A DNA stretch of 42,411 bases from Candidatus Eiseniibacteriota bacterium (lineage in GTDB: Bacteria > Joyebacterota > Joyebacteria > Joyebacterales > Joyebacteraceae): positions 1-42,411 of the forward strand of contig DAOWCM010000002.1 of the NCBI GenBank assembly GCA_030639555.1. The letters run 5' to 3'. Below are positions 18,250 to 33,949 of this stretch, piece by piece. Numbering within the stretch: position 1 is the stretch's first letter; every line of letters begins with the position of its first letter. Both the position numbers and the translations under genes were made by a program. A model generated the notes under the pieces. The model did not search any database and was not told the DNA's origin. It worked only from the letters and a program-made list of their open reading frames with translations.

Positions 18250-18437
18250 CCGGGGCCGAATGTGCCGTCGTGTAGCGCGCGCTGCGACTCTAGGCAGCGT
18301 AGGATCTTATCGAGCGTAGAGCCAATCAAGTCGAGCCGCTCGCAGATCTCGGCGCCGACTTGCCATGGGTGCATATCCGCTACCTGTCCCATTTTGTGGT
18401 ACTCATTCGCGATCCCGTTCATATCTTCAGGCGTCAT
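18246..18437 (-). CDS. Hypothetical protein (63 aa), last gene of the early-left operon
   Basis: The internal ATG at 18437 overlaps the upstream stop (TGATG). Sequence: MTPEDMNGIANEYHKMGQVADMHPWQVGAEICERLDLIGSTLDKILRCLESQ... Confidence 0.4.
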   Translation of the reverse strand: MTPEDMNGIANEYHKMGQVADMHPWQVGAEICERLDLIGSTLDKILRCLESQRALHDGTFGPG

Positions 18438-18910
18438 CACGTGTTCTGCACCTCGATGCGGTGTCGGCTGTCGCTGCCGATCCCGCGGTTTGTGACGATG
18501 ATCACCGCCTCGTCGTACGGATCCATCGCCCGCATGAAGTAGTCGTGTGCGCTGCGGCTGTTTACTACCGCCCACCTCATTAGATTAGTCGTACGGCCTC
18601 GTAGCCACCCGAGGCCCGTACCCGGGGCTATACACCCGAGTAGGTCGTCTATCGTATTGCCGATGTGAATCTTGATCTCGTCGCGCTCTAGTACGCCGCA
18701 GACCTCCCAGGTAGCGTAGTCACCCTGGTTGTAGTGGCAGGGACGGAGGGGGTAGGTTCCGCACGGGATACAGGAGATGAAGCGCTCGTTATCGATCCAC
18801 GGACGCTCGACCGTGTAGCACTCGAATGCTTTATCCCAAGAGACGCCTACCGTGAGATCGCCGAACGTGCCGTGCGGCGTGTGACCCCAACGTCTTAGCG
18901 TAACGATCAT
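18437..18910 (-). CDS. DUF5675-like protein (157 aa) with a YkuD/L,D-peptidase-like H...GC signature; candidate cell-wall hydrolase
   Basis: GTFGDL...CYTVERPW..N...SCIPCGTYPL... and ERDEIKIHIGNTIDDLLGCIAPG match the pattern I recall for DUF5675 phage proteins (HxGN...GCI). Confidence 0.55.
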   Translation of the reverse strand: MIVTLRRWGHTPHGTFGDLTVGVSWDKAFECYTVERPWIDNERFISCIPCGTYPLRPCHYNQGDYATWEVCGVLERDEIKIHIGNTIDDLLGCIAPGTGLGWLRGRTTNLMRWAVVNSRSAHDYFMRAMDPYDEAVIIVTNRGIGSDSRHRIEVQNT

Positions 18911-19299: not shown

Positions 19300-19340
19300 C
19301 CCGCCGGCTGGGGCGGGTTAGGTCAGCCACGGGGGTGGCT
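19300..19340 (-). terminator. Two short GC-rich hairpins directly after the 19340..20398 gene (possible weak terminator or RNA-stability element)
   Basis: AGCCAC-GGGG-GTGGCT (19325-19340, touching the stop codon) and CCCGCC-N6-GGCGGG (19300-19317). Neither is followed by a U-tract. Confidence 0.25.
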
Positions 19341-20398
19341 CACTCGGTGTCCACTTGAATAAACACATCTCTCGTGTATGTCATCGGCATAAACCACGGA
19401 TCCTCGCTGGTCGAACCGCAGCCGGGACTGAGCAGATCGTCCTCCGGATCGTACATCCCGCACCACCCGACCCAGAGATCCAGTGCCGAGGCATCAGGAG
19501 TCTCGCTCATCTTGATCGGCAGATTGACGAGATCCGCAAATGTGACCGAGAACGTGGCTTCGTCGAGTAGGTCCTCTGACGAAAGACCGTCCAGAATCAC
19601 CATGTAATCCTCCCTGGTAGGGGCGCCGCCTACCCTGTAGGCTTCGCACTCCCAGTCCGCGGGAACATTGGCAGAGATCCAGTCGGAGCAGTCGAAGCGA
19701 TTGTAATAATCGGTATCGTCCAGGGCTGATATCGTTATGCCTAAATCGTGGTTCTCCCCAAGGGCCCTCGTGTAGACCGTCATCCTGATTTTGGCGATGC
19801 CATCCTCAGGCCAGGTACCATGTGGCGGCATCCAGGCTTGTACTGATATGTCCTTCGTGTTACCAGCCGAGATACCATGGCCGTGCTCCAAGGACGTCAT
19901 CAAAAATGCTGCATGGTTGCCTATTTCTACACACTCCTTTGCGTTCCCACAGGCCGCCTTGGATCCATCTGCGCACTGAGCACCTGGGCTTTGTGTTTCA
20001 TTGAACATTCCTTGGAAGATCGAGTAATCGGACGCCTCGACCTTACCAATGCAGTCGTGGTTAGCCTGATCGTCGTAGTCGGCATGTTTCCTGCCAAGGT
20101 TGAATGTGGCCTTGAAGGTAGAGAAGTCGGTCGGACCGACTTTGCCGACGTTATCGAAGTTGGCATCGCAGGCATTGCCGTATCCGTCGCTGTCGCTGTC
20201 CCCCTGTTCCCAGTTGAAGTCGTCGGGACAGTTATCGCTGACGTCATCGTTCGGGTCATCCTCGACCCACGTAATGGTGGCGCTGGGATCATGGAAAGAA
20301 TCCCCGTCTGTGTCGCCCAGATAGAAATCGGCCTGGACTATAGTAACGCCCAGTGCCAGCAGAATGGCGCATGCTAGTGCAATCACGTTATACCTCAT
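19340..20398 (-). CDS. Secreted protein (352 aa) with thrombospondin-type-3/dockerin-like Ca-binding repeats; low-GC moron-like gene
   Basis: Signal peptide MRYNVIALACAILLALGVTIVQA. DNCPDDFNWEQGDSDSDGYGNACD is TSP3-like. DANFDNVGKVGPTDFSTFKATF and NHDCIGKVEASDYSIFQGMF are dockerin/EF-hand-like. AGGAG RBS 9 nt upstream. GC is visibly lower than in the flanks. Confidence 0.7.
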   Translation of the reverse strand: MRYNVIALACAILLALGVTIVQADFYLGDTDGDSFHDPSATITWVEDDPNDDVSDNCPDDFNWEQGDSDSDGYGNACDANFDNVGKVGPTDFSTFKATFNLGRKHADYDDQANHDCIGKVEASDYSIFQGMFNETQSPGAQCADGSKAACGNAKECVEIGNHAAFLMTSLEHGHGISAGNTKDISVQAWMPPHGTWPEDGIAKIRMTVYTRALGENHDLGITISALDDTDYYNRFDCSDWISANVPADWECEAYRVGGAPTREDYMVILDGLSSEDLLDEATFSVTFADLVNLPIKMSETPDASALDLWVGWCGMYDPEDDLLSPGCGSTSEDPWFMPMTYTRDVFIQVDTE

Positions 20399-23150: not shown

Positions 23151-23178
23151 GGTCTCGTTCTCCCTCTGGTGCGCGGGG

Positions 23179-23457
23179 TTATGCCCGCGGTAAGCCCGCC
23201 GCCCGCTTCCGCCACTCTGCGAACAGCAAATCGGCGCCCTCGACCGCAGAGATCACGGACTGATCGGCTGCGATGTACGCCGCCATCGATCCCCCGAGCG
23301 CGTTCATCGCAAAGTACGTCCACACCTCAAGCTCGTAGCGCGTCAAGGCTGAGTCCTCGAAATGATCGGGCGGCGGCTCCTCGCCAGCGATCGCGCGGCC
23401 GATCAGATTGGATCCGCCTGCGGGTCCGTGGATACACTCCTCGCACGGCTCAGCCAT
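23179..23457 (-). CDS. Hypothetical protein (92 aa), partial paralog of the upstream 183-aa protein
   Basis: MAEPCEEC...GRAIAGEEPPP shares the MAE..C..C start and the RAIAGEE segment with the 183-aa protein. That segment is a 22-nt perfect DNA repeat (23377-23398 = 23789-23810). Confidence 0.5.
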   Translation of the reverse strand: MAEPCEECIHGPAGGSNLIGRAIAGEEPPPDHFEDSALTRYELEVWTYFAMNALGGSMAAYIAADQSVISAVEGADLLFAEWRKRAAGLPRA

Positions 23458-23562
23458 CCCCATCCCCCTTCGCCGGCTCCCAGTCGTCCGGCGGCTCGTC
23501 GTCCTTGATCGGATCCGGGCCCACCTTTCGCTTCGGTGGCTGCTGGCCCTCCTTGATCTCGT
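23449..23562. repeat. 114-bp direct repeat, copy A (about 90% identical to 23993..24106), spanning a gene junction
   Basis: Hand alignment gives about 11 mismatches in 114 nt. The repeat covers the C-terminal tail codons of one gene, the stop, and the overlapping ATGGCTGA start of the next gene. Confidence 0.85.
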
Positions 23563-24001
23563 AGCTCTCGATGAAATCGGCCGCCGCACGAAGGACGGCC
23601 GCCTGCATCCACCCGTTTGAATCCTCGCCCGGGCCCTCGATCGCAATCGACCACGGGGCCCCCAGATTCGCCGTAGCCGGATCGTCCGAGTAGTACAGCC
23701 GCAGCCGGTACCGCTTTCCCTCGTCGACGTAATCGAATCCGTAGGCCACGTACCGGGGGGCGGTGGTGCGGGCGATGCCGATCGGCTCCTCCTCGCCAGC
23801 GATCGCGCGGGCTTTCTCGAGCCACTCGGCGAGCGGGCAAGCGAGTTTCTTCACATTCCCAAACGGGCCACATGGATCGGCGTTCCCGCATTTCTCGGAG
23901 ATCGCGTCGAGAAGGCGCTCGAGATCGTCGAGCATCGACGCCGAACCGAGTTTGACGAGGAGCTCGTCGCAGTCAGGGCACTTCTGGATCTGCTCAGCCA
24001 T
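23450..24001 (-). CDS. Hypothetical protein (183 aa) with N-terminal CxxC and the shared C-terminal tail IKEGQQPPKRKVGPDPIKDDEPPDDWEPAKGDGDG
   Basis: The internal ATG at 24001 (MAEQIQKCPDCDELL...) overlaps the upstream stop by 8 nt. The upstream part of ORF 23450..24238 is Arg-rich junk. Confidence 0.55.
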   Translation of the reverse strand: MAEQIQKCPDCDELLVKLGSASMLDDLERLLDAISEKCGNADPCGPFGNVKKLACPLAEWLEKARAIAGEEEPIGIARTTAPRYVAYGFDYVDEGKRYRLRLYYSDDPATANLGAPWSIAIEGPGEDSNGWMQAAVLRAAADFIESYEIKEGQQPPKRKVGPDPIKDDEPPDDWEPAKGDGDG

Positions 24002-24106
24002 CGTCCTCCCCCTTCGCCGGCTCCCAGTCGTCCGGCGGCTCGTCGTCGTGGATCGGATCCGGGCCGGCCTTCCGCTTCGGGGGCTGCTGGCCCTCCTTGA
24101 TCTCGT
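23993..24106. repeat. 114-bp direct repeat, copy B
   Basis: See copy A (23449..23562). The offset between copies is 544 bp. Confidence 0.85.
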
Positions 24107-25028
24107 GATTTGGGGGACCGACCGGCTTTTCCGCCCCCTTGAGCGCCTGTGCCGCCGCGTCAGCCGATTTCTGGGCCGCCTCCCTATCCGGGCCGCGAGG
24201 AGGCGGGAACGCCTCTCTGGCGCTGACCTCGCGATCAAGGGCGATGGCGCGGTACTTCAGCCGCAGGGCGACGATATCGTCCACCCCCACCTCGGCGCGG
24301 CCCTCGGCCCCCAGGTACGAGAGGATATTCGCCTCCTCGGCCCCAAGCTTGAGGAGCGCCGCGAACGCCTCGTCGACGCGCTGGGCGAACGGCGTATGGC
24401 CGTCGGCCCCGATCGCTAGGAGCTTCGCCTTGTGCCAGCACGGGTCCCACAGCGGCCTCGGTACGGTGGCGATGATCGCGTTGCGCCGGGCGATCGAGAT
24501 GGCCGCCGCGATCGTCGTCTCGACCATGTGGCTCGGGTACCGCTTCCCGCCCTTCCCGATGATCGGCCGCGTTACCTGGATCCGGTTCGCGTTGTTGTTC
24601 TCGAGGTCCCGACACGTACCGACCGCGATCACGTGGCGCGCGCCCTCTTCGAGAAACCCGGCCTCGACGACGAGGTTCTGGTAGTTGCACTGGATCATCT
24701 CGGCCAGCCGAACCGAGGGGCCGATGATCTTCTGCCCCCCCTTCGGGACCGCGTACGTGCAGTCGTCGGCGATCGCCCGGGTGCGCAGGGCCATGGCCTC
24801 GAGCCCTTTCTCGAACTTGACGATCGAGCGCGGGTAGGCGCGCGCCGTCGCGACCTGCACGTCCAGCGCGGCCGCCTCCGAGGCCCGGTACAGCTGCACG
24901 TCGCCCGGGTCCGTGGTGGCCGGCAGGACCTCGGCCTCGACTACCGTCCCGTTGCCCGCCGCGACCTCGGGTTGCGGTACGTCCATCCACCCGGCCGGCT
25001 CCTGCGGTCTCTGTTCGTTAGTCTGCAT
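23994..25028 (-). CDS. Putative single-strand annealing / recombination protein (344 aa), partner of the RecE-like exonuclease. The family is not securely recognised.
   Basis: Start MQTNEQRPQEP at 25028. It lies directly downstream of the exonuclease. The core ...TYAVPKGGQKIIGPSVRLAEMIQCNYQNL...DLENNNANRIQV...AISIARRNAI resembles phage recombinase-associated families. The C-terminal tail is IKEGQQPPKRKAGPDPIHDDEPPDDWEPAKGEDDG. Confidence 0.45.
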   Translation of the reverse strand: MQTNEQRPQEPAGWMDVPQPEVAAGNGTVVEAEVLPATTDPGDVQLYRASEAAALDVQVATARAYPRSIVKFEKGLEAMALRTRAIADDCTYAVPKGGQKIIGPSVRLAEMIQCNYQNLVVEAGFLEEGARHVIAVGTCRDLENNNANRIQVTRPIIGKGGKRYPSHMVETTIAAAISIARRNAIIATVPRPLWDPCWHKAKLLAIGADGHTPFAQRVDEAFAALLKLGAEEANILSYLGAEGRAEVGVDDIVALRLKYRAIALDREVSAREAFPPPRGPDREAAQKSADAAAQALKGAEKPVGPPNHEIKEGQQPPKRKAGPDPIHDDEPPDDWEPAKGEDDG

Positions 25029-26846: not shown

Positions 26847-27373
26847 CGTGATGCCCGCCTACAGTGACCCATCTGGTGATACGCCAAGCACACACCAAGC
26901 AGGGCGCCTTGCCGCTGCGCGTCCGAACACCCATTGCTCGAGAAGCAGCAGCTCGCGCACTGTCCGGCGCTCTCCTTGAATGCGATACACCGCCCCTCGC
27001 CTGCGGCCTCGATACTGTCGTCGGTGCAGTCCTCGTCGATGAACACGCACCGCTGGCACTGCTCTGCGGCCTCAGCCCACGGAGGCTCCGGCGGCTCGCC
27101 CTTGGCCCGAAAGAGCTTCTGTACGGCGCCGTAGAACGCCCGATCGATCACGGCCGCGCAGACCGGGCACACGTAGCGCGGCATCCCCCCCTCCGGCGGA
27201 CGCGCCTCGGAGAGCATCCGCGCCGGGCAGCGGTCCAAGCACAGCCCGCATTCGGCGAACGGCTCGGGCGCCCCCGGCGACTCGCATGCCCGCAAGAGCC
27301 ATCCGCGCGCATCCTCATCCCGCCCCGCCCGTAGGCAGTGGTTAGCCTCGTTCACGCACTCAGCGAACGTCAT
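26843..27373 (-). CDS. Cys-rich protein (176 aa, 18 Cys, four CxxC pairs); probable multi-zinc-binding protein
   Basis: The ATG at 27373 overlaps the upstream stop (ATGA). CxxC pairs: CGLC, CPVC, CQRC, CASC. The remaining N-terminal part of ORF 26843..28144 is junk in another gene's shadow. Confidence 0.55.
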   Translation of the reverse strand: MTFAECVNEANHCLRAGRDEDARGWLLRACESPGAPEPFAECGLCLDRCPARMLSEARPPEGGMPRYVCPVCAAVIDRAFYGAVQKLFRAKGEPPEPPWAEAAEQCQRCVFIDEDCTDDSIEAAGEGRCIAFKESAGQCASCCFSSNGCSDAQRQGALLGVCLAYHQMGHCRRASR

Positions 27374-28008
27374 CACCACGTCTCCCCTCTGGTAGCTTCC
27401 AGACTCGCCGCAAACAGCGCCTCCTCTTTCGCCGCCAGCCGCACCTCGACGCGTCTCTGTGCGAGCATAAACTCGGGCGGCAGTTCGATCCCCTCGCGCC
27501 GGCACCACTCGACCCACCGATCGGCCATGTCCGCCGGCCAGCGCTGGAGGTCCGATCCCGACCAGACGACGCGGCGCCTCCGGAACCGCGCGGCCATCTC
27601 TTGGCGCGCGCCGAACCCGTTCTGCGCCCCAATGAGATGGAGGAACACTTGGACGAACTCCTGCCCGTGGGAGGCGCAGAAGCGCGACCAGCGGCGGCGT
27701 ACCATGATCAGATGCGCGAGCTCGTGGAGTACGATCTGCTCGTGGCGCGCCCAGCGCGGGACGTGGAGGGCGAAGGCGCCTACGGTTCGCGCCCGCCTGG
27801 AGCCACGGCCGTCGTGTACCTCTATCTCCGCCAGATCGAGCAGAGGATGAGGCCGCACGAGCCAGTCCTTCGCCATGACCTCCGTGCAGTACCGCTGGAC
27901 AGCGGCCAGCGACTCGAAGGGACGGCCCTTCTCGCCGTCGTCCTCGGCGTCGTAGACGCGCTCCTTCTGCCAATCGCGTAGGGGCTTGACGCCATTCGGG
28001 AGCGTCAT
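27373..28008 (-). CDS. SprT-like / HExxH zinc metallopeptidase-like protein (211 aa)
   Basis: HEQIVLHELAHLIMV...CASHGQEFVQVF gives HExxH plus a downstream His, as in SprT-type domains. ATGA overlaps at both ends. Confidence 0.55.
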   Translation of the reverse strand: MTLPNGVKPLRDWQKERVYDAEDDGEKGRPFESLAAVQRYCTEVMAKDWLVRPHPLLDLAEIEVHDGRGSRRARTVGAFALHVPRWARHEQIVLHELAHLIMVRRRWSRFCASHGQEFVQVFLHLIGAQNGFGARQEMAARFRRRRVVWSGSDLQRWPADMADRWVEWCRREGIELPPEFMLAQRRVEVRLAAKEEALFAASLEATRGETW

Positions 28009-28355
28009 CGCTGCTTCCTTTCGGCGGCATGCCACGTGTAGTGGCATTTCGGACACAGCCACTCAACATCGAGTAGATGCTCCGGCGTATAGCTGCGGTG
28101 ATGCCCGTGAATCCGGCTCCGGGCCGGCTGTCCGCAGTTTTCACACAGCTCAGGGCGGATCAGCGTACCCGCCCGAACCGCACTGTGAACCGCGTATGCG
28201 GCTCGCGCGCGCTTGGCCCGGCTCGCGAGCACCCGCTGATCGATGCATTCTTGACAGAAACGCGCCTGCGGGGTGTGGGTCCCCCATCGGCCACACGATT
28301 CACAGTGGCGCCCTGCCCAGTTCCCGCTCTCCAATTGTCCGATCTCCGTCGCCAT
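28005..28355 (-). CDS. Zinc-finger / HNH-like protein (116 aa), first gene of the early-left operon
   Basis: The internal ATG at 28355 starts MATEIGQLESGNW. CESCG...CQEC and CENCG...HGHHRSYTPEHLLDVEWLCPKCHYTWH resemble phage HNH-type (CxxC...HH...WLCxxCH) modules. Confidence 0.55.
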   Translation of the reverse strand: MATEIGQLESGNWAGRHCESCGRWGTHTPQARFCQECIDQRVLASRAKRARAAYAVHSAVRAGTLIRPELCENCGQPARSRIHGHHRSYTPEHLLDVEWLCPKCHYTWHAAERKQR

Positions 28356-28362
28356 GTGCGGA

Positions 28363-28390
28363 AATATACCATCACCTTCGGACAGCGCAA
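28363..28390 (-). promoter_or_regulatory. Candidate sigma70-like promoter for the early-left operon (TTGCGC-16 nt-TATATT), with the -10 element 7 nt from the ATG (leaderless)
   Basis: Reverse complement of 28353-28390 reads TTGCGCtgtccgaaggtgatggTATATTtccgcacATG. Confidence 0.5.
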
Positions 28391-28435
28391 GGCAAATCTT
28401 GACCGGATTGTGCGAAATTCTTACGGCGGATCCTG

Positions 28436-32148: not shown

Positions 32149-32649
32149 ATGCCGGCCATCGATGCCGAGATGGAGGCCACGTTCCTCGAGATCCTCGCCA
32201 CCCATGCGAACGTGAGCGAGGCGGCGCGCGCCAGCGGGTACGACCGGACGACTTGGTACCACCGGCGGAACGACCGAGACGAGGACGGCGAGCCCCTGTA
32301 CCCGGACTTTGCGGCCGCGTGGGAGACTGCGCTCGGGGAGGGGCGGGATGCCCTGCGACTTGAGGCACGGCGCCGCGGCGAGCATGGGGTCTCGAAGCCC
32401 GTGTTCTACCAGGGAGTGGTCTGCGGCCACATCCAAGAGTACAGCGACACGCTGCTCTGCCGGCTCCTCGAAGCCCACTGCCCCGAGCACAAGCGGACGG
32501 CCGCGATCGACCTGCGCACACCCCCAGGTGAGCAAGTGCGCCTCGAGATCGCACCCGACATAGACCGGGCCCGGCGCGTAGCCGAGCTTCTCATCGAGCT
32601 GGAACCGCCCGACGAGGGGGAAGATGGCGGCGACGGCACTCCCGAGTAA
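32149..32649 (+). CDS. terS: Terminase small subunit (166 aa from ATG 32149)
   Basis: FLEILATHANVSEAARASGYDRTTWYHRRNDRDEDG...FAAAWETALGEGRDALRLEARRRGEHG...YSDTLLCRLLEAHCPE fits the HTH-type TerS pattern. It lies directly upstream of TerL. Confidence 0.65.
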   Translation: MPAIDAEMEATFLEILATHANVSEAARASGYDRTTWYHRRNDRDEDGEPLYPDFAAAWETALGEGRDALRLEARRRGEHGVSKPVFYQGVVCGHIQEYSDTLLCRLLEAHCPEHKRTAAIDLRTPPGEQVRLEIAPDIDRARRVAELLIELEPPDEGEDGGDGTPE

Positions 32650-33949
32650 GCGCGAGCTTGCAGGGGCTCGGCTGGTCGAGATCACTCGGCCACGGCTAAA
32701 CAAGTACATCCCGCACGTGCCGACCGAGCGGCAGCAGGTAGGGCTCCTGCTCCAGTCCTCGGAGATCCTATACGGCGGTGCAGCTGGCGGCGGGAAGACC
32801 GACTGGCTCGCCATGGGGGCGCTTCAGTACGTCGACGTCCACAAGTACGCGGCCCTCCTACTGCGACGCACGTACCAGCAGGCGTCGAAAGCGGACGCGA
32901 TCATTCCCCGGCTCCACGAGTGGCTACAGCCGACCGATGCGCACTGGGACGGTCTCAACAGCACGTGGAGGTTCCCAAGCAAGGCGACGCTCGAGATCGG
33001 ACACTGTCAGTTCGAGAAGGACAAGTACAACTTCCAGGGCGGGCAGTATCAGTTCGTCGGATTCGACGAGCTTACTCAGTTCACGCTCTCTCAGTACACG
33101 TACCTGTTCTCGCGTACCCGCCGGCTCGAGGGGAACGCGAAGGTCCCGATCCGCCACTGGGCGGGCTCGAACCCGGGCGGCGAGGGCCACGTATGGGTCC
33201 GGGATATGTTCCTCGTCCAGAAGGAGCCGGATCGGGTGTTCCTGCCGGCGCGGCTACACGATAATCCGTACCTCGACGCTGAGGAGTATATCAAGTCGCT
33301 CTCACACTTGGATCCCACCACACGCGCACAGCTGCTCGAGGGCGACTGGGAGGTACGGGACAAGGGGTCGCTATTCGACCGCGATTGGTTCGAGATCGTC
33401 AAGGCGGCCCCCGCGAGCCGGCGGACGATCCGGGCGTGGGACCTCGCGGCGATCAATCCCAGGAAGCAGAAGAAAGCGAAGGCGGCTAGCGTCGACGGCG
33501 ACTACATCTCCGGCTGCCTCATGTCGGAGCACGACGGCGTGTTCTACATCGAAGACATCCGGCGGAAGCGCACCACGCCCTCCGGTATCCGTCAGATGCT
33601 CAAGCAATCGGCCACACTCGACGGCAAGGCGACGACGATCTGGATCGAGCAGGAACCCGGCTCGTCGGGTGTGATCGTGATCGACACCTACGTGCGGCTG
33701 TTGGTCGGGTGGAACGTGCGCGGGCAGCCGCCCAGCGGTGACAAGATCGTACGCGCGGCGCCGCTCTCGGCGCAGGCGGAGGCTGGGAACGTCAAGCTGG
33801 TCGAGGGCCCATGGAACCGGGCCTTCCTGGAAGAGATGGAGCTGATCGGGACCGAGTCGGCAGCCTTTGACGATCAGTGTGACTCGGCGTCGCTGTCGTT
33901 CTCGAAATTGGCCGAGCACATCCAAGTCCGGGGAGGGGTGGCGGCATGA
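32624..33949 (+). CDS. terL: Terminase large subunit (441 aa)
   Basis: Walker A YGGAAGGGKTD, FVGFDELTQF (Walker B-like), and a C-terminal nuclease-like region ...IRAWDLAA...WIEQEPGSSG...FDDQCDS. Confidence 0.85.
   Translation: MAATALPSKRELAGARLVEITRPRLNKYIPHVPTERQQVGLLLQSSEILYGGAAGGGKTDWLAMGALQYVDVHKYAALLLRRTYQQASKADAIIPRLHEWLQPTDAHWDGLNSTWRFPSKATLEIGHCQFEKDKYNFQGGQYQFVGFDELTQFTLSQYTYLFSRTRRLEGNAKVPIRHWAGSNPGGEGHVWVRDMFLVQKEPDRVFLPARLHDNPYLDAEEYIKSLSHLDPTTRAQLLEGDWEVRDKGSLFDRDWFEIVKAAPASRRTIRAWDLAAINPRKQKKAKAASVDGDYISGCLMSEHDGVFYIEDIRRKRTTPSGIRQMLKQSATLDGKATTIWIEQEPGSSGVIVIDTYVRLLVGWNVRGQPPSGDKIVRAAPLSAQAEAGNVKLVEGPWNRAFLEEMELIGTESAAFDDQCDSASLSFSKLAEHIQVRGGVAA

Follow-up and report, generated by a model that had tools for sequence, protein, structure and literature searches.

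Gene organization of the recombination module

The 42,411-nucleotide (nt) contig DAOWCM010000002.1 of assembly GCA_030639555.1 (Candidatus Eiseniibacteriota bacterium), which was taken over its full length and is referred to below as the window, is a whole 42.4-kilobase phage contig. It is myovirus-like, has a G+C content of 64%, and carries structural genes for a tail sheath, tape measure, baseplate, small and large terminase, portal and major head. Our analysis concerns a recombination module of five genes, all located on the minus strand, which encode in 5' to 3' order proteins of 315, 344, 183, 92 and 433 residues (Table 1). The first of these is a RecE-like exonuclease, the second a candidate single-strand annealing protein (below, the annealing protein) and the last an ATPase of the SbcC/Rad50/SMC-like kind. 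The feature under study is a direct repeat, through which the annealing protein and the 183-residue protein end in almost the same tail and the genes that follow them begin in almost the same way.

A repeat finder showed this direct repeat to be 128 nt long, with copies that are 89% identical and lie 544 nt apart. Both copies contain the Shine-Dalgarno (SD) sequence AAGGGGGA (24007-24014 and 23463-23470), from which 5 nt lead to the ATG, together with the stop/start overlap of 8 nt, ATGGCTGA (23994-24001 and 23450-23457). The copies differ at 14 of the 128 positions without any insertion or deletion, and they share a perfect block of 41 nt. In diagonal identity plots the 5' boundary of the repeat, in the orientation of the genes, was sharp and fell at the codon before …EIKEG, whereas the 3' boundary decayed after ATGGCTGAGC, weak similarity being detectable for about 14 nt past the ATG of the next gene. 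No third copy was found in any frame of the window. At the protein level, 32 of 38 residues are identical between the two tails (84%; E = 6e-20 for the pair). The stretches DDEPPDDWEP and QQPPKRK form a core that is the same in both copies, and the last residues read EPAKGEDDG in the annealing protein and EPAKGDGDG in the 183-residue protein. A previous sequence-only reading of this DNA had drawn attention to the duplicated peptide and gene junction, and both were recovered here, together with the gene sizes of 344, 183 and 92 residues and the 8-nt overlaps that it had described. Its repeat of 114 bp and about 90% identity proved to be real, although longer at the end where similarity reaches into the next gene. 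That reading had also allowed for an assembly artefact; with 14 positions at which the copies disagree, however, the repeat did not arise through collapse or expansion in the assembly.

The stop codon of the exonuclease gene and the start codon of the annealing-protein gene overlap by 11 nt. Three consecutive junctions (25018-25028, 23994-24001 and 23450-23457) are thus stop/start overlaps, with an SD sequence within the last codons of the upstream gene, and a 28-nt spacer separates the 92-residue-protein gene from the ATPase gene. The genes for the 183-residue and 92-residue proteins start in an identical translational-coupling context and, judging from this arrangement, are probably expressed by translational coupling. 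Since a consensus scan found no sigma-70 promoter or intrinsic terminator that would interrupt the five genes, they probably form one operon. Four proteins of the module have ends rich in Gly, Asp and Glu (…EEAEEDAD, …KGEDDG, …KGDGDG and, in the ATPase, …NDGDE), and part of this 'acidic C-terminus' pattern may be imposed by the ribosome-binding sequences that the gene ends contain. RNA folding of the repeat gave no indication of structure, both copies being no more stably folded than their shuffled versions (z = +0.84 and +0.37).

A second, shorter repeat lies inside the two downstream genes. It covers 28 nt with 93% identity (26 of 28 positions) at an offset of 412 rather than 544 nt, and it includes the 22-nt perfect repeat coding for RAIAGEE that the previous reading had located at 23377-23398 and 23789-23810. 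When up to 3 mismatches were allowed, this 22-nt core had 2 matches in the window, compared with 0.01 expected, and the 22-mer had no match in viral contigs. According to the diagonal identity plots, the two units have no similarity to each other outside the patches of 128 and 28 nt. The 22-nt core contains GCGATCGC, which occurs 13 times in the window against about 1.5 by a rough hand estimate, and the hexamer CGATCG occurs 81 times against about 14 by a rough hand estimate from base composition. We considered GCGATCGC as a HIP1-like element and rejected this idea, because CGATCG is over-represented genome-wide and not specifically at this locus; the excess probably reflects codon usage (…NNC GAT CGN… or GCG ATC GCN) and not a dedicated element.

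Table 1. Features of the recombination module and of the repeats within it (positions in the window)
Feature	Position	Strand	Description
RecE-like 5'-3' exonuclease, 315 residues	25018..25965	-	Pfam DUF3799 (PDDEXK) 1.9e-18; phrog_412 exonuclease VIII 5e-49
Candidate single-strand annealing protein, 344 residues	23994..25028	-	Core approximately residues 41-300; predicted disordered tail 309-344
183-residue protein	23450..24001	-	N-terminal Cys-containing helical part, small predicted beta-sheet, duplicated tail (148-183)
92-residue protein	23179..23457	-	Product MAEPCEEC…RAIAGEE…
SbcC/Rad50/SMC-like ATPase, 433 residues	21849..23150	-	Pfam AAA_23 3.7e-11; phrog_1499 3e-89
128-nt repeat, copy B	23979..24106	-	Last 37 codons of annealing-protein gene (…HEIKEGQQPPKRKAGPDPIHDDEPPDDWEPAKGEDDG, stop), SD sequence, overlap, first codons of 183-residue-protein gene
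128-nt repeat, copy A	23435..23562	-	Last 37 codons of 183-residue-protein gene (…YEIKEGQQPPKRKVGPDPIKDDEPPDDWEPAKGDGDG, stop), SD sequence, overlap, first codons of 92-residue-protein gene
28-nt repeat, copy in 183-residue-protein gene	23783..23810	-	Codes for ARAIAGEEE
28-nt repeat, copy in 92-residue-protein gene	23371..23398	-	Codes for GRAIAGEEP
Hairpin (CGCGGG…CCCGCG) and SD sequence	23151..23192	-	Upstream of ATPase start, overlaps last codons of 92-residue-protein gene; from folding

The 344-residue protein as a candidate annealing protein

Sequence models do not place the 344-residue protein. It has no Pfam or NCBIfam match at E ≤ 0.1, and this includes the Pfam models for RecT, Red-beta, ERF and Rad52_Rad22 and their NCBIfam equivalents; a profile search against PDB sequences gave no match either. 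The sole family match is phrog_3657 (8e-33), which is annotated as 'unknown function'. An alignment was made of 62 homologues (P0002-P0063). The AlphaFold2 (AF2) model had a mean predicted local distance difference test score (pLDDT) of 83 and displays the core fold of the Rad52 superfamily, comprising helices at the N-terminus, a beta-hairpin, a sheet of three strands and one long helix. In a Foldseek search of BFVD, the first five matches of this model were unnamed members of its own family, and the next were proteins named ERF, Rad52/59/22, Sak3 or 'single-strand annealing protein', with E-values from 3e-5 to 1e-2 and probabilities of at least 0.9. Among PDB entries, the highest probability (0.85, with an E-value of only 0.08) went to 7ujl, the N-terminal domain of Red-beta. 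An exonuclease gene lies directly upstream or one gene away, both in the window and in seven of the eight relatives described below. On the basis of the predicted fold and this exonuclease-gene neighbourhood, we accept the 344-residue protein as a putative Rad52-superfamily annealing protein that stands outside every curated sequence family.

The phrog_3657 family itself is sizeable and includes metagenomic and phage members. It has no sequence relative in Pfam, NCBIfam or PDB, yet its predicted fold resembles Rad52, ERF and Sak3, and it recurs with a DUF3799 or YqaJ exonuclease, often also with an SbcC-like ATPase, in variable gene order. From the modelled fold, it looks like an undescribed family of annealing proteins. 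The product of gene 47 of Arthrobacter phage Sonali, which adjoins exonuclease and SSB (single-stranded DNA-binding protein) genes, was examined as a further member and rejected as not homologous.

The three large proteins of the module bore out the annotation that the sequence-only reading had proposed, as fold matches point to an annealing protein, and Pfam and phrog matches to a RecE-like exonuclease and an SMC-like ATPase. Besides the matches given in Table 1, the exonuclease matched the NCBIfam model for exodeoxyribonuclease VIII at 4e-17, under the curated cut-off. The ATPase matched NCBIfam models for SMC-related, Rad50 and SbcC proteins, all below their cut-offs, and is 37-39% identical to the products of ATPase genes of Arthrobacter and Gordonia phages.

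Ownership and age of the tail

Residues 311-344 of the annealing protein are predicted to be disordered, with AF2 pLDDT values that fall from 62 to 37 (means of 10-residue blocks). In the low-confidence AF2 model of the 183-residue protein, residues 142-183 are likewise without secondary structure. The tail is first basic and then acidic, and contains one tryptophan (W335 of the annealing protein, 9 residues from the end). Among the 62 homologues, only P0002, which is the closest one with 54% identity, has a related end (GSDPAKHDEPPGDWKLAGGGDTD versus GPDPIHDDEPPDDWEPAKGEDDG). Here, 12 of 23 tail residues are identical, a proportion much like that in the folded core (130 of 225). The two proteins have the acidic-aromatic pattern G.DP...DEPP.DW in common, whereas P0002 lacks the basic part EIKEGQQPPKRK. 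Across the family the C-termini vary widely: a net acidic charge over the last 15 residues is seen in 33 of 63, and an aromatic residue within the last 8 in 19 of 63. Because of this diversity the motif is specific to one branch and not family-wide. On this alignment, the acidic-aromatic half of the tail is ancestral and conserved in this branch of the annealing protein, and such conservation is the behaviour that would be expected of a short linear motif. Back-translated searches for the motif outside these proteins were negative; DDEPPDDWEP had zero matches in viral and genome contigs, and G.DP...DEPP.DW had zero matches in viral, metagenome and genome contigs.

Comparison of the copies over 36 tail codons revealed 2 synonymous and 4 non-synonymous codon differences and no insertion or deletion. 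The Nei-Gojobori estimates were about 0.18 substitutions per synonymous site (dS) and about 0.07 per non-synonymous site (dN), with a ratio of about 0.4 that rests on some nine substitutions and has no statistical power. At a codon for Lys in one copy and His in the other, the relative L001 served as outgroup. Since the copy on the 183-residue protein keeps the AAG of the outgroup and the copy on the annealing protein has changed, both tails have drifted since the duplication.

The 183-residue and 92-residue proteins

Neither of the two small proteins could be assigned to a family. A word-indexed search of 5.8 billion proteins returned no homologues of either protein besides the proteins themselves, no family matches were obtained for the two, and the 183-residue protein had no PDB match. 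The structure of the latter, predicted from its single sequence, was poor (pLDDT 53), and a Foldseek search with it gave no match at E < 0.1. Its cysteines are C8, C11, C38, C44 and C55. We also asked whether the 183-residue core might be the detached C-terminal domain of longer members of the annealing-protein family; this was rejected, as there was no similarity outside the tail in any of the 62 proteins. Both genes show a codon-position G+C pattern like that of their neighbours (0.68/0.46/0.82 for the 183-residue and 0.66/0.52/0.77 for the 92-residue protein).

An exhaustive HMMER search of 1.84 billion representatives with the 183-residue protein matched two giant proteins with PKD repeats alone. 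The similarity to these proteins (P0066 and P0067) covers residues 75-144 of the 183-residue protein and is made up of many weak repeats, each worth about 25 bits, with a summed E-value of 1e-8. They were rejected as homologues, the matches being taken as resemblance of a beta-strand motif. A weak likeness of residues 82-119 (PRYVAYGFDYVDEGKRYRLRLYYSDDPATANLGAPWSI) to the opening strands of PKD domains may hint at a small beta-sandwich or hairpin.

The sequence-only reading had pointed to shared features of the two small proteins, namely MAE..C..C at the start and RAIAGEE, from which paralogy might be suspected. The MAE..C..C similarity is not significant by itself, and past RAIAGEE the proteins score z = -1.0 against shuffles. 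Homology along the whole unit, as a tandem duplication would leave it, was not observed, similarity being confined to the two short patches. Apart from MAE, the cysteine pairs and RAIAGEE, the proteins thus appear to be unrelated.

Comparison with related loci

Eight relatives' loci were retrieved (L001-L006, L017 and L018), of which six (L001-L006) were searched with the tail by tblastn and two were compared by their gene tables. In 7 of the 8, the annealing-protein gene overlaps the exonuclease gene or lies one gene from it. The exonuclease belongs to DUF3799 in L001, L002, L003, L006 and L017 and to YqaJ in L004; in L018 the upstream gene is partial and unannotated, and no exonuclease gene is shown by the annealing-protein gene in L005. 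L018, whose annealing protein is 41% and whose ATPase is 44% identical to that of the window, has the order exonuclease, annealing protein, ATPase, with an overlap of 4 nt between the last two genes. In L003 the ATPase gene comes second, after the exonuclease gene and before that of the annealing protein. L001, the closest relative, has a 79-nt spacer after the annealing-protein gene, and the distal part of this spacer, a GC hairpin with an SD sequence, is about 85% identical to 23153-23190 of the window (tblastx and alignment; L001 2561-2596). A role in regulation or processing at a module boundary may explain why this hairpin with its SD sequence is conserved. Its L001 counterpart (2555-2596) precedes a coiled-coil gene and not an ATPase gene.

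As no homologues of the small proteins were found, as the annealing-protein and ATPase genes are adjacent in L018, and as the hairpin directly follows the annealing-protein gene in L001, the genes for the 183-residue and 92-residue proteins are lineage-specific additions within an otherwise compact three-gene module. In the survey of relatives that had been proposed for the repeat unit, none of the eight loci shows an obvious second copy. Closer phage relatives were not available, as nothing exceeded 32% identity when the annealing protein, ATPase and exonuclease were compared with viral contigs and the annealing protein with metagenome contigs.

Origin of the repeat

We regard it as very probable that the ancestral tail of the annealing protein, together with its gene junction, was recently copied onto the neighbouring gene for the 183-residue protein. 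In the event envisaged here, a segment of about 125 bp with the tail, stop codon, SD sequence and overlapping ATG would have been copied in frame onto the 3' end of that gene, thereby replacing the original 3' end and junction. Since one boundary is sharp and non-homologous and the other decays through similar gene starts, the event would have been illegitimate on one side and homologous on the other, as in a template switch or short-patch conversion. The 28-nt RAIAGEE patch could be a second, shorter tract of similar type. The source of relaxed recombination might be the phage's own Rad52-fold annealing protein; phage Rad52-like recombinases are reported to drive relaxed exchanges (PMC3945230). 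An insertion with a long target duplication is a possible alternative origin.

Other views of the repeat fit less well. An ancient tandem duplication of the tail plus a small gene would make the 183-residue and 92-residue proteins diverged paralogues in which selection kept the tail and RAIAGEE. The shared MAE start, cysteine pairs and RAIAGEE agree with this, as does the geometry of a direct repeat with 544-nt spacing. However, the tail has hardly changed at its synonymous sites (dS about 0.18), whereas the rest of the unit is dissimilar in both DNA and protein, the RAIAGEE patch has the wrong offset, and the 92-residue protein is shorter than the unit requires. With synonymous sites unsaturated and flanking DNA unalignable, an old duplication of which only the tail was preserved would seem excluded, and we consider tandem duplication very improbable. 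Scarcely better placed is the idea that the repeat acts as nucleic acid and not as a protein feature, for instance by forming an RNA structure, binding a protein or serving as a recombination site. The repeat does include the signals with which translation of the downstream gene begins, its ribosome-binding site and start, and its conservation is to that extent at the RNA level, but neither copy folds better than its shuffles, the two copies are the only ones in the genome, and conservation of the protein sequence reaches P0002, whose downstream context differs; we judge this idea to be highly unlikely. The faintest prospect of all is given to an assembly artefact or a chimera of two strain variants joined at the repeat. 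There is a single metagenome-type assembly with one contig on record, and yet neither copy can be a collapsed or duplicated read path, given their 14 differences, and both junctions of the 183-residue core are in frame with codon-position G+C continuous across them.

Possible function of the duplicated tail

For the tail as it stands on the annealing protein, docking is the likeliest role, in view of its likeness to SSB tips, the known contacts of annealing-protein C-terminal regions, and the tails of phage T7 (all compared below), and by analogy with these we lean slightly towards the tail being a docking motif there. It would be a short motif of the acidic-aromatic kind found at SSB tips, binding a partner's pocket of basic or hydrophobic character. 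Candidate partners include the exonuclease and the ATPase, and also the helical C-terminal region of the annealing protein itself or a protein of the host SSB network. If the tail of the 183-residue protein is functional too, this protein would be co-recruited with the annealing protein at one site or compete with it there. That the copied tail does act at the same partner is doubtful in our estimation, and taken as a whole, the explanation that combines a recent copy of tail and junction, a docking tail and a possible co-recruitment is evenly balanced between right and wrong. A more far-reaching version, in which the tail is a portable docking peptide that mimics an SSB tip and, with the stop codon, SD sequence and start codon, forms a 'plug-in cassette' that wires a newly acquired accessory protein into the annealing-protein hub, be it the exonuclease, the ATPase or the host SSB network, we hold to be unlikely; in that case the 183-residue protein would be a co-factor or a competitive regulator of recombination.

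A number of observations weigh against a shared docking function. The substitutions are too few to show selection on the tail of the 183-residue protein, and D342, which is conserved in P0002, is Gly in this copy. The last residues (AKGEDDG and AKGDGDG) are partly dictated by the SD sequence downstream, so that part of the 'acidic tail' may reflect a nucleotide-level constraint. DDEPPDDW shares five consecutive residues with the mycobacterial and actinobacterial SSB tip, but this was noticed post hoc. Moreover, the tails continue for 9 residues after the tryptophan and thus do not end in an aromatic residue as SSB tips do. The arrangement is carried by one genome and contig alone: tblastn found no second copy of the locus's own annealing-protein tail in L001-L006, and none was obvious in the gene tables of the other two loci. 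The sequence-only reading had compared the tail with docking tails and had suggested that two proteins with one tail are recruited to one partner. The former view holds to the extent that the tail is predicted to be disordered and that its acidic-aromatic half is conserved on the annealing protein in P0002, and falls short at the missing terminal aromatic carboxylate. The latter finds no support beyond the duplication itself, which is recent.

The second tail may be a passenger of the recombination event, since the copy is recent, its carrier is without homologues and missing in the relatives, and tail sharing was not seen in the relatives' loci searched. The repeat would then be a neutral scar, the footprint of an event that inserted or re-joined the 183-residue-protein gene, and would have been kept for its stop codon, SD sequence and start codon, with a tail that has no function of its own. 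Consistent with such a scar, there is no clear purifying selection, the 92-residue protein is as devoid of homologues as its neighbour, none of the six relatives' loci searched by tblastn shares the tail, the homology lies in short, sharp-edged patches as at phage mosaic joints, and the SD sequence is located inside the last codons. It is harder to reconcile with the in-frame fusion without any insertion or deletion in 128 nt, and with the identity of the DDEPPDDWEP and QQPPKRK core in both copies. In addition, a 128-nt repeat with a 41-nt perfect block should be easily deleted in a phage with an annealing system, and yet this repeat has outlived 14 substitutions. We regard the scar as a real, if less than probable, explanation; a scar that supplies a translational-coupling signal explains the data about as well as a partner shared by both tails.

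The same geometry has a consequence for the stability of the locus. Owing to the 41-nt perfect block within the 128 nt and the annealing system encoded by the phage, one 544-bp unit, consisting of the 183-residue core and one repeat copy, would be deletable by single-strand annealing, as the sequence-only reading had supposed.

If the tail is a docking peptide, a short linear motif would have moved between neighbouring proteins by a 128-bp duplication, rewiring a recombination complex in one step. If the cassette version is correct, the locus would be an observed example of motif spread between neighbouring phage genes through the relaxed recombination of the phage. A docking tail would also offer a handle on the uncharacterised Rad52-fold family phrog_3657, with possible use for recombineering in high-GC hosts. 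Conversely, if the second tail is merely a scar, the locus represents ordinary phage mosaicism.

Surrounding genes and host signals

Signals of the host are mixed. The large terminase (32624-33949) most resembles its counterparts in psiM100 and psiM2, archaeal viruses of Methanothermobacter/Methanobacterium (42-43% identity), followed by Gordonia phages (38%), and the ATPase is closest to that of Arthrobacter and Gordonia phages. A scan of early-region proteins revealed no recognisable gene for an SSB, a polymerase or a clamp, and no tRNAs were found on the contig. Upstream of the recombination module, in the early region, the minus-strand stretches 27373-28062 and 28005-28400 yielded a weak signature of an SprT-like metalloprotease (E 1e-3, under the cut-off) and an HNH-type endonuclease (phrog_2340, 3e-15). 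A 352-residue protein without family match (19340-20398, minus strand) combines an N-terminal, signal-like hydrophobic segment with Asp-rich repeats of the DxDxDG type (calcium-binding, thrombospondin-3-like), and its gene adjoins that of a DUF5675 protein (18437-18910).

Comparison with known systems

The C-terminal tip of the E. coli SSB (SSB-Ct) is DDDIPF, and a terminal aromatic residue whose free carboxylate is recognised is the hallmark of such tips. In mycobacteria, the tips are GADDEPPF (M. smegmatis) and FGGGDDEPPF (M. tuberculosis) (PMC3575820, PMC7847540). The SSB of an Arthrobacter phage ends in …GSEPPF. In the duplicated tail, a disordered linker, as predicted by AF2 pLDDT, leads to an acidic run, Pro-Pro and an aromatic residue, which may be compared with such tips. 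The likeness, which was noticed post hoc, reads DDEPP-DD-W in both copies and HDEPP-G-D-W in P0002, compared with DDEPPF in the mycobacterial tips. It differs from SSB-Ct in that the motif is not at the extreme C-terminus, in that Trp takes the place of Phe, and in that its carriers are not SSBs with an oligonucleotide/oligosaccharide-binding fold.

In other phage systems, C-terminal regions of annealing proteins contact the partner exonuclease and SSB-Ct (PMC6393309, PMC13490951). The window resembles the Red-beta/lambda Exo pair in the candidate role of the annealing protein's C-terminal region and in the order of exonuclease gene, then annealing-protein gene, with overlap. In Red-beta, however, a folded helical domain receives the SSB tail, whereas the candidate element of the window is itself a disordered peptide that is like an SSB tip; and unlike Red-beta and RecT, the window protein belongs to no named sequence family.

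Mosaic joints of phage genomes, for which short-homology exchange driven by Rad52-like recombinases is reported (PMC3945230), resemble the locus in that short and sharp patches of near-identity lie at gene boundaries and flank an inserted accessory gene, in a phage that encodes a Rad52-fold annealing protein. Here, by contrast, the patch is repeated within one genome, a coding tail is duplicated in frame, and two proteins end in one C-terminus.

The closest parallel for the sharing of a tail is found in phage T7, where two proteins of one DNA-metabolism module, the SSB gp2.5 and the helicase-primase gp4, both have flexible acidic tails that bear an aromatic residue. In both T7 tails the aromatic residue comes last. 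They dock on basic patches of the complex of polymerase gp5 and thioredoxin (gp5/trx), and gp2.5's acidic tails at the C-terminus can compete with that of gp4 for this complex (bioRxiv 10.64898/2026.05.20.726333). Like acidic tails are also present on two proteins of the window, the annealing and 183-residue proteins; the T7 tails, however, are alike in character and not recent DNA duplicates, whereas those of the window are 84% identical through a 128-bp duplication and have an internal aromatic residue. The locus can be seen, in modest terms, as a variation on two themes already known, the sharing of acidic docking tails and the mosaic joints of phages.

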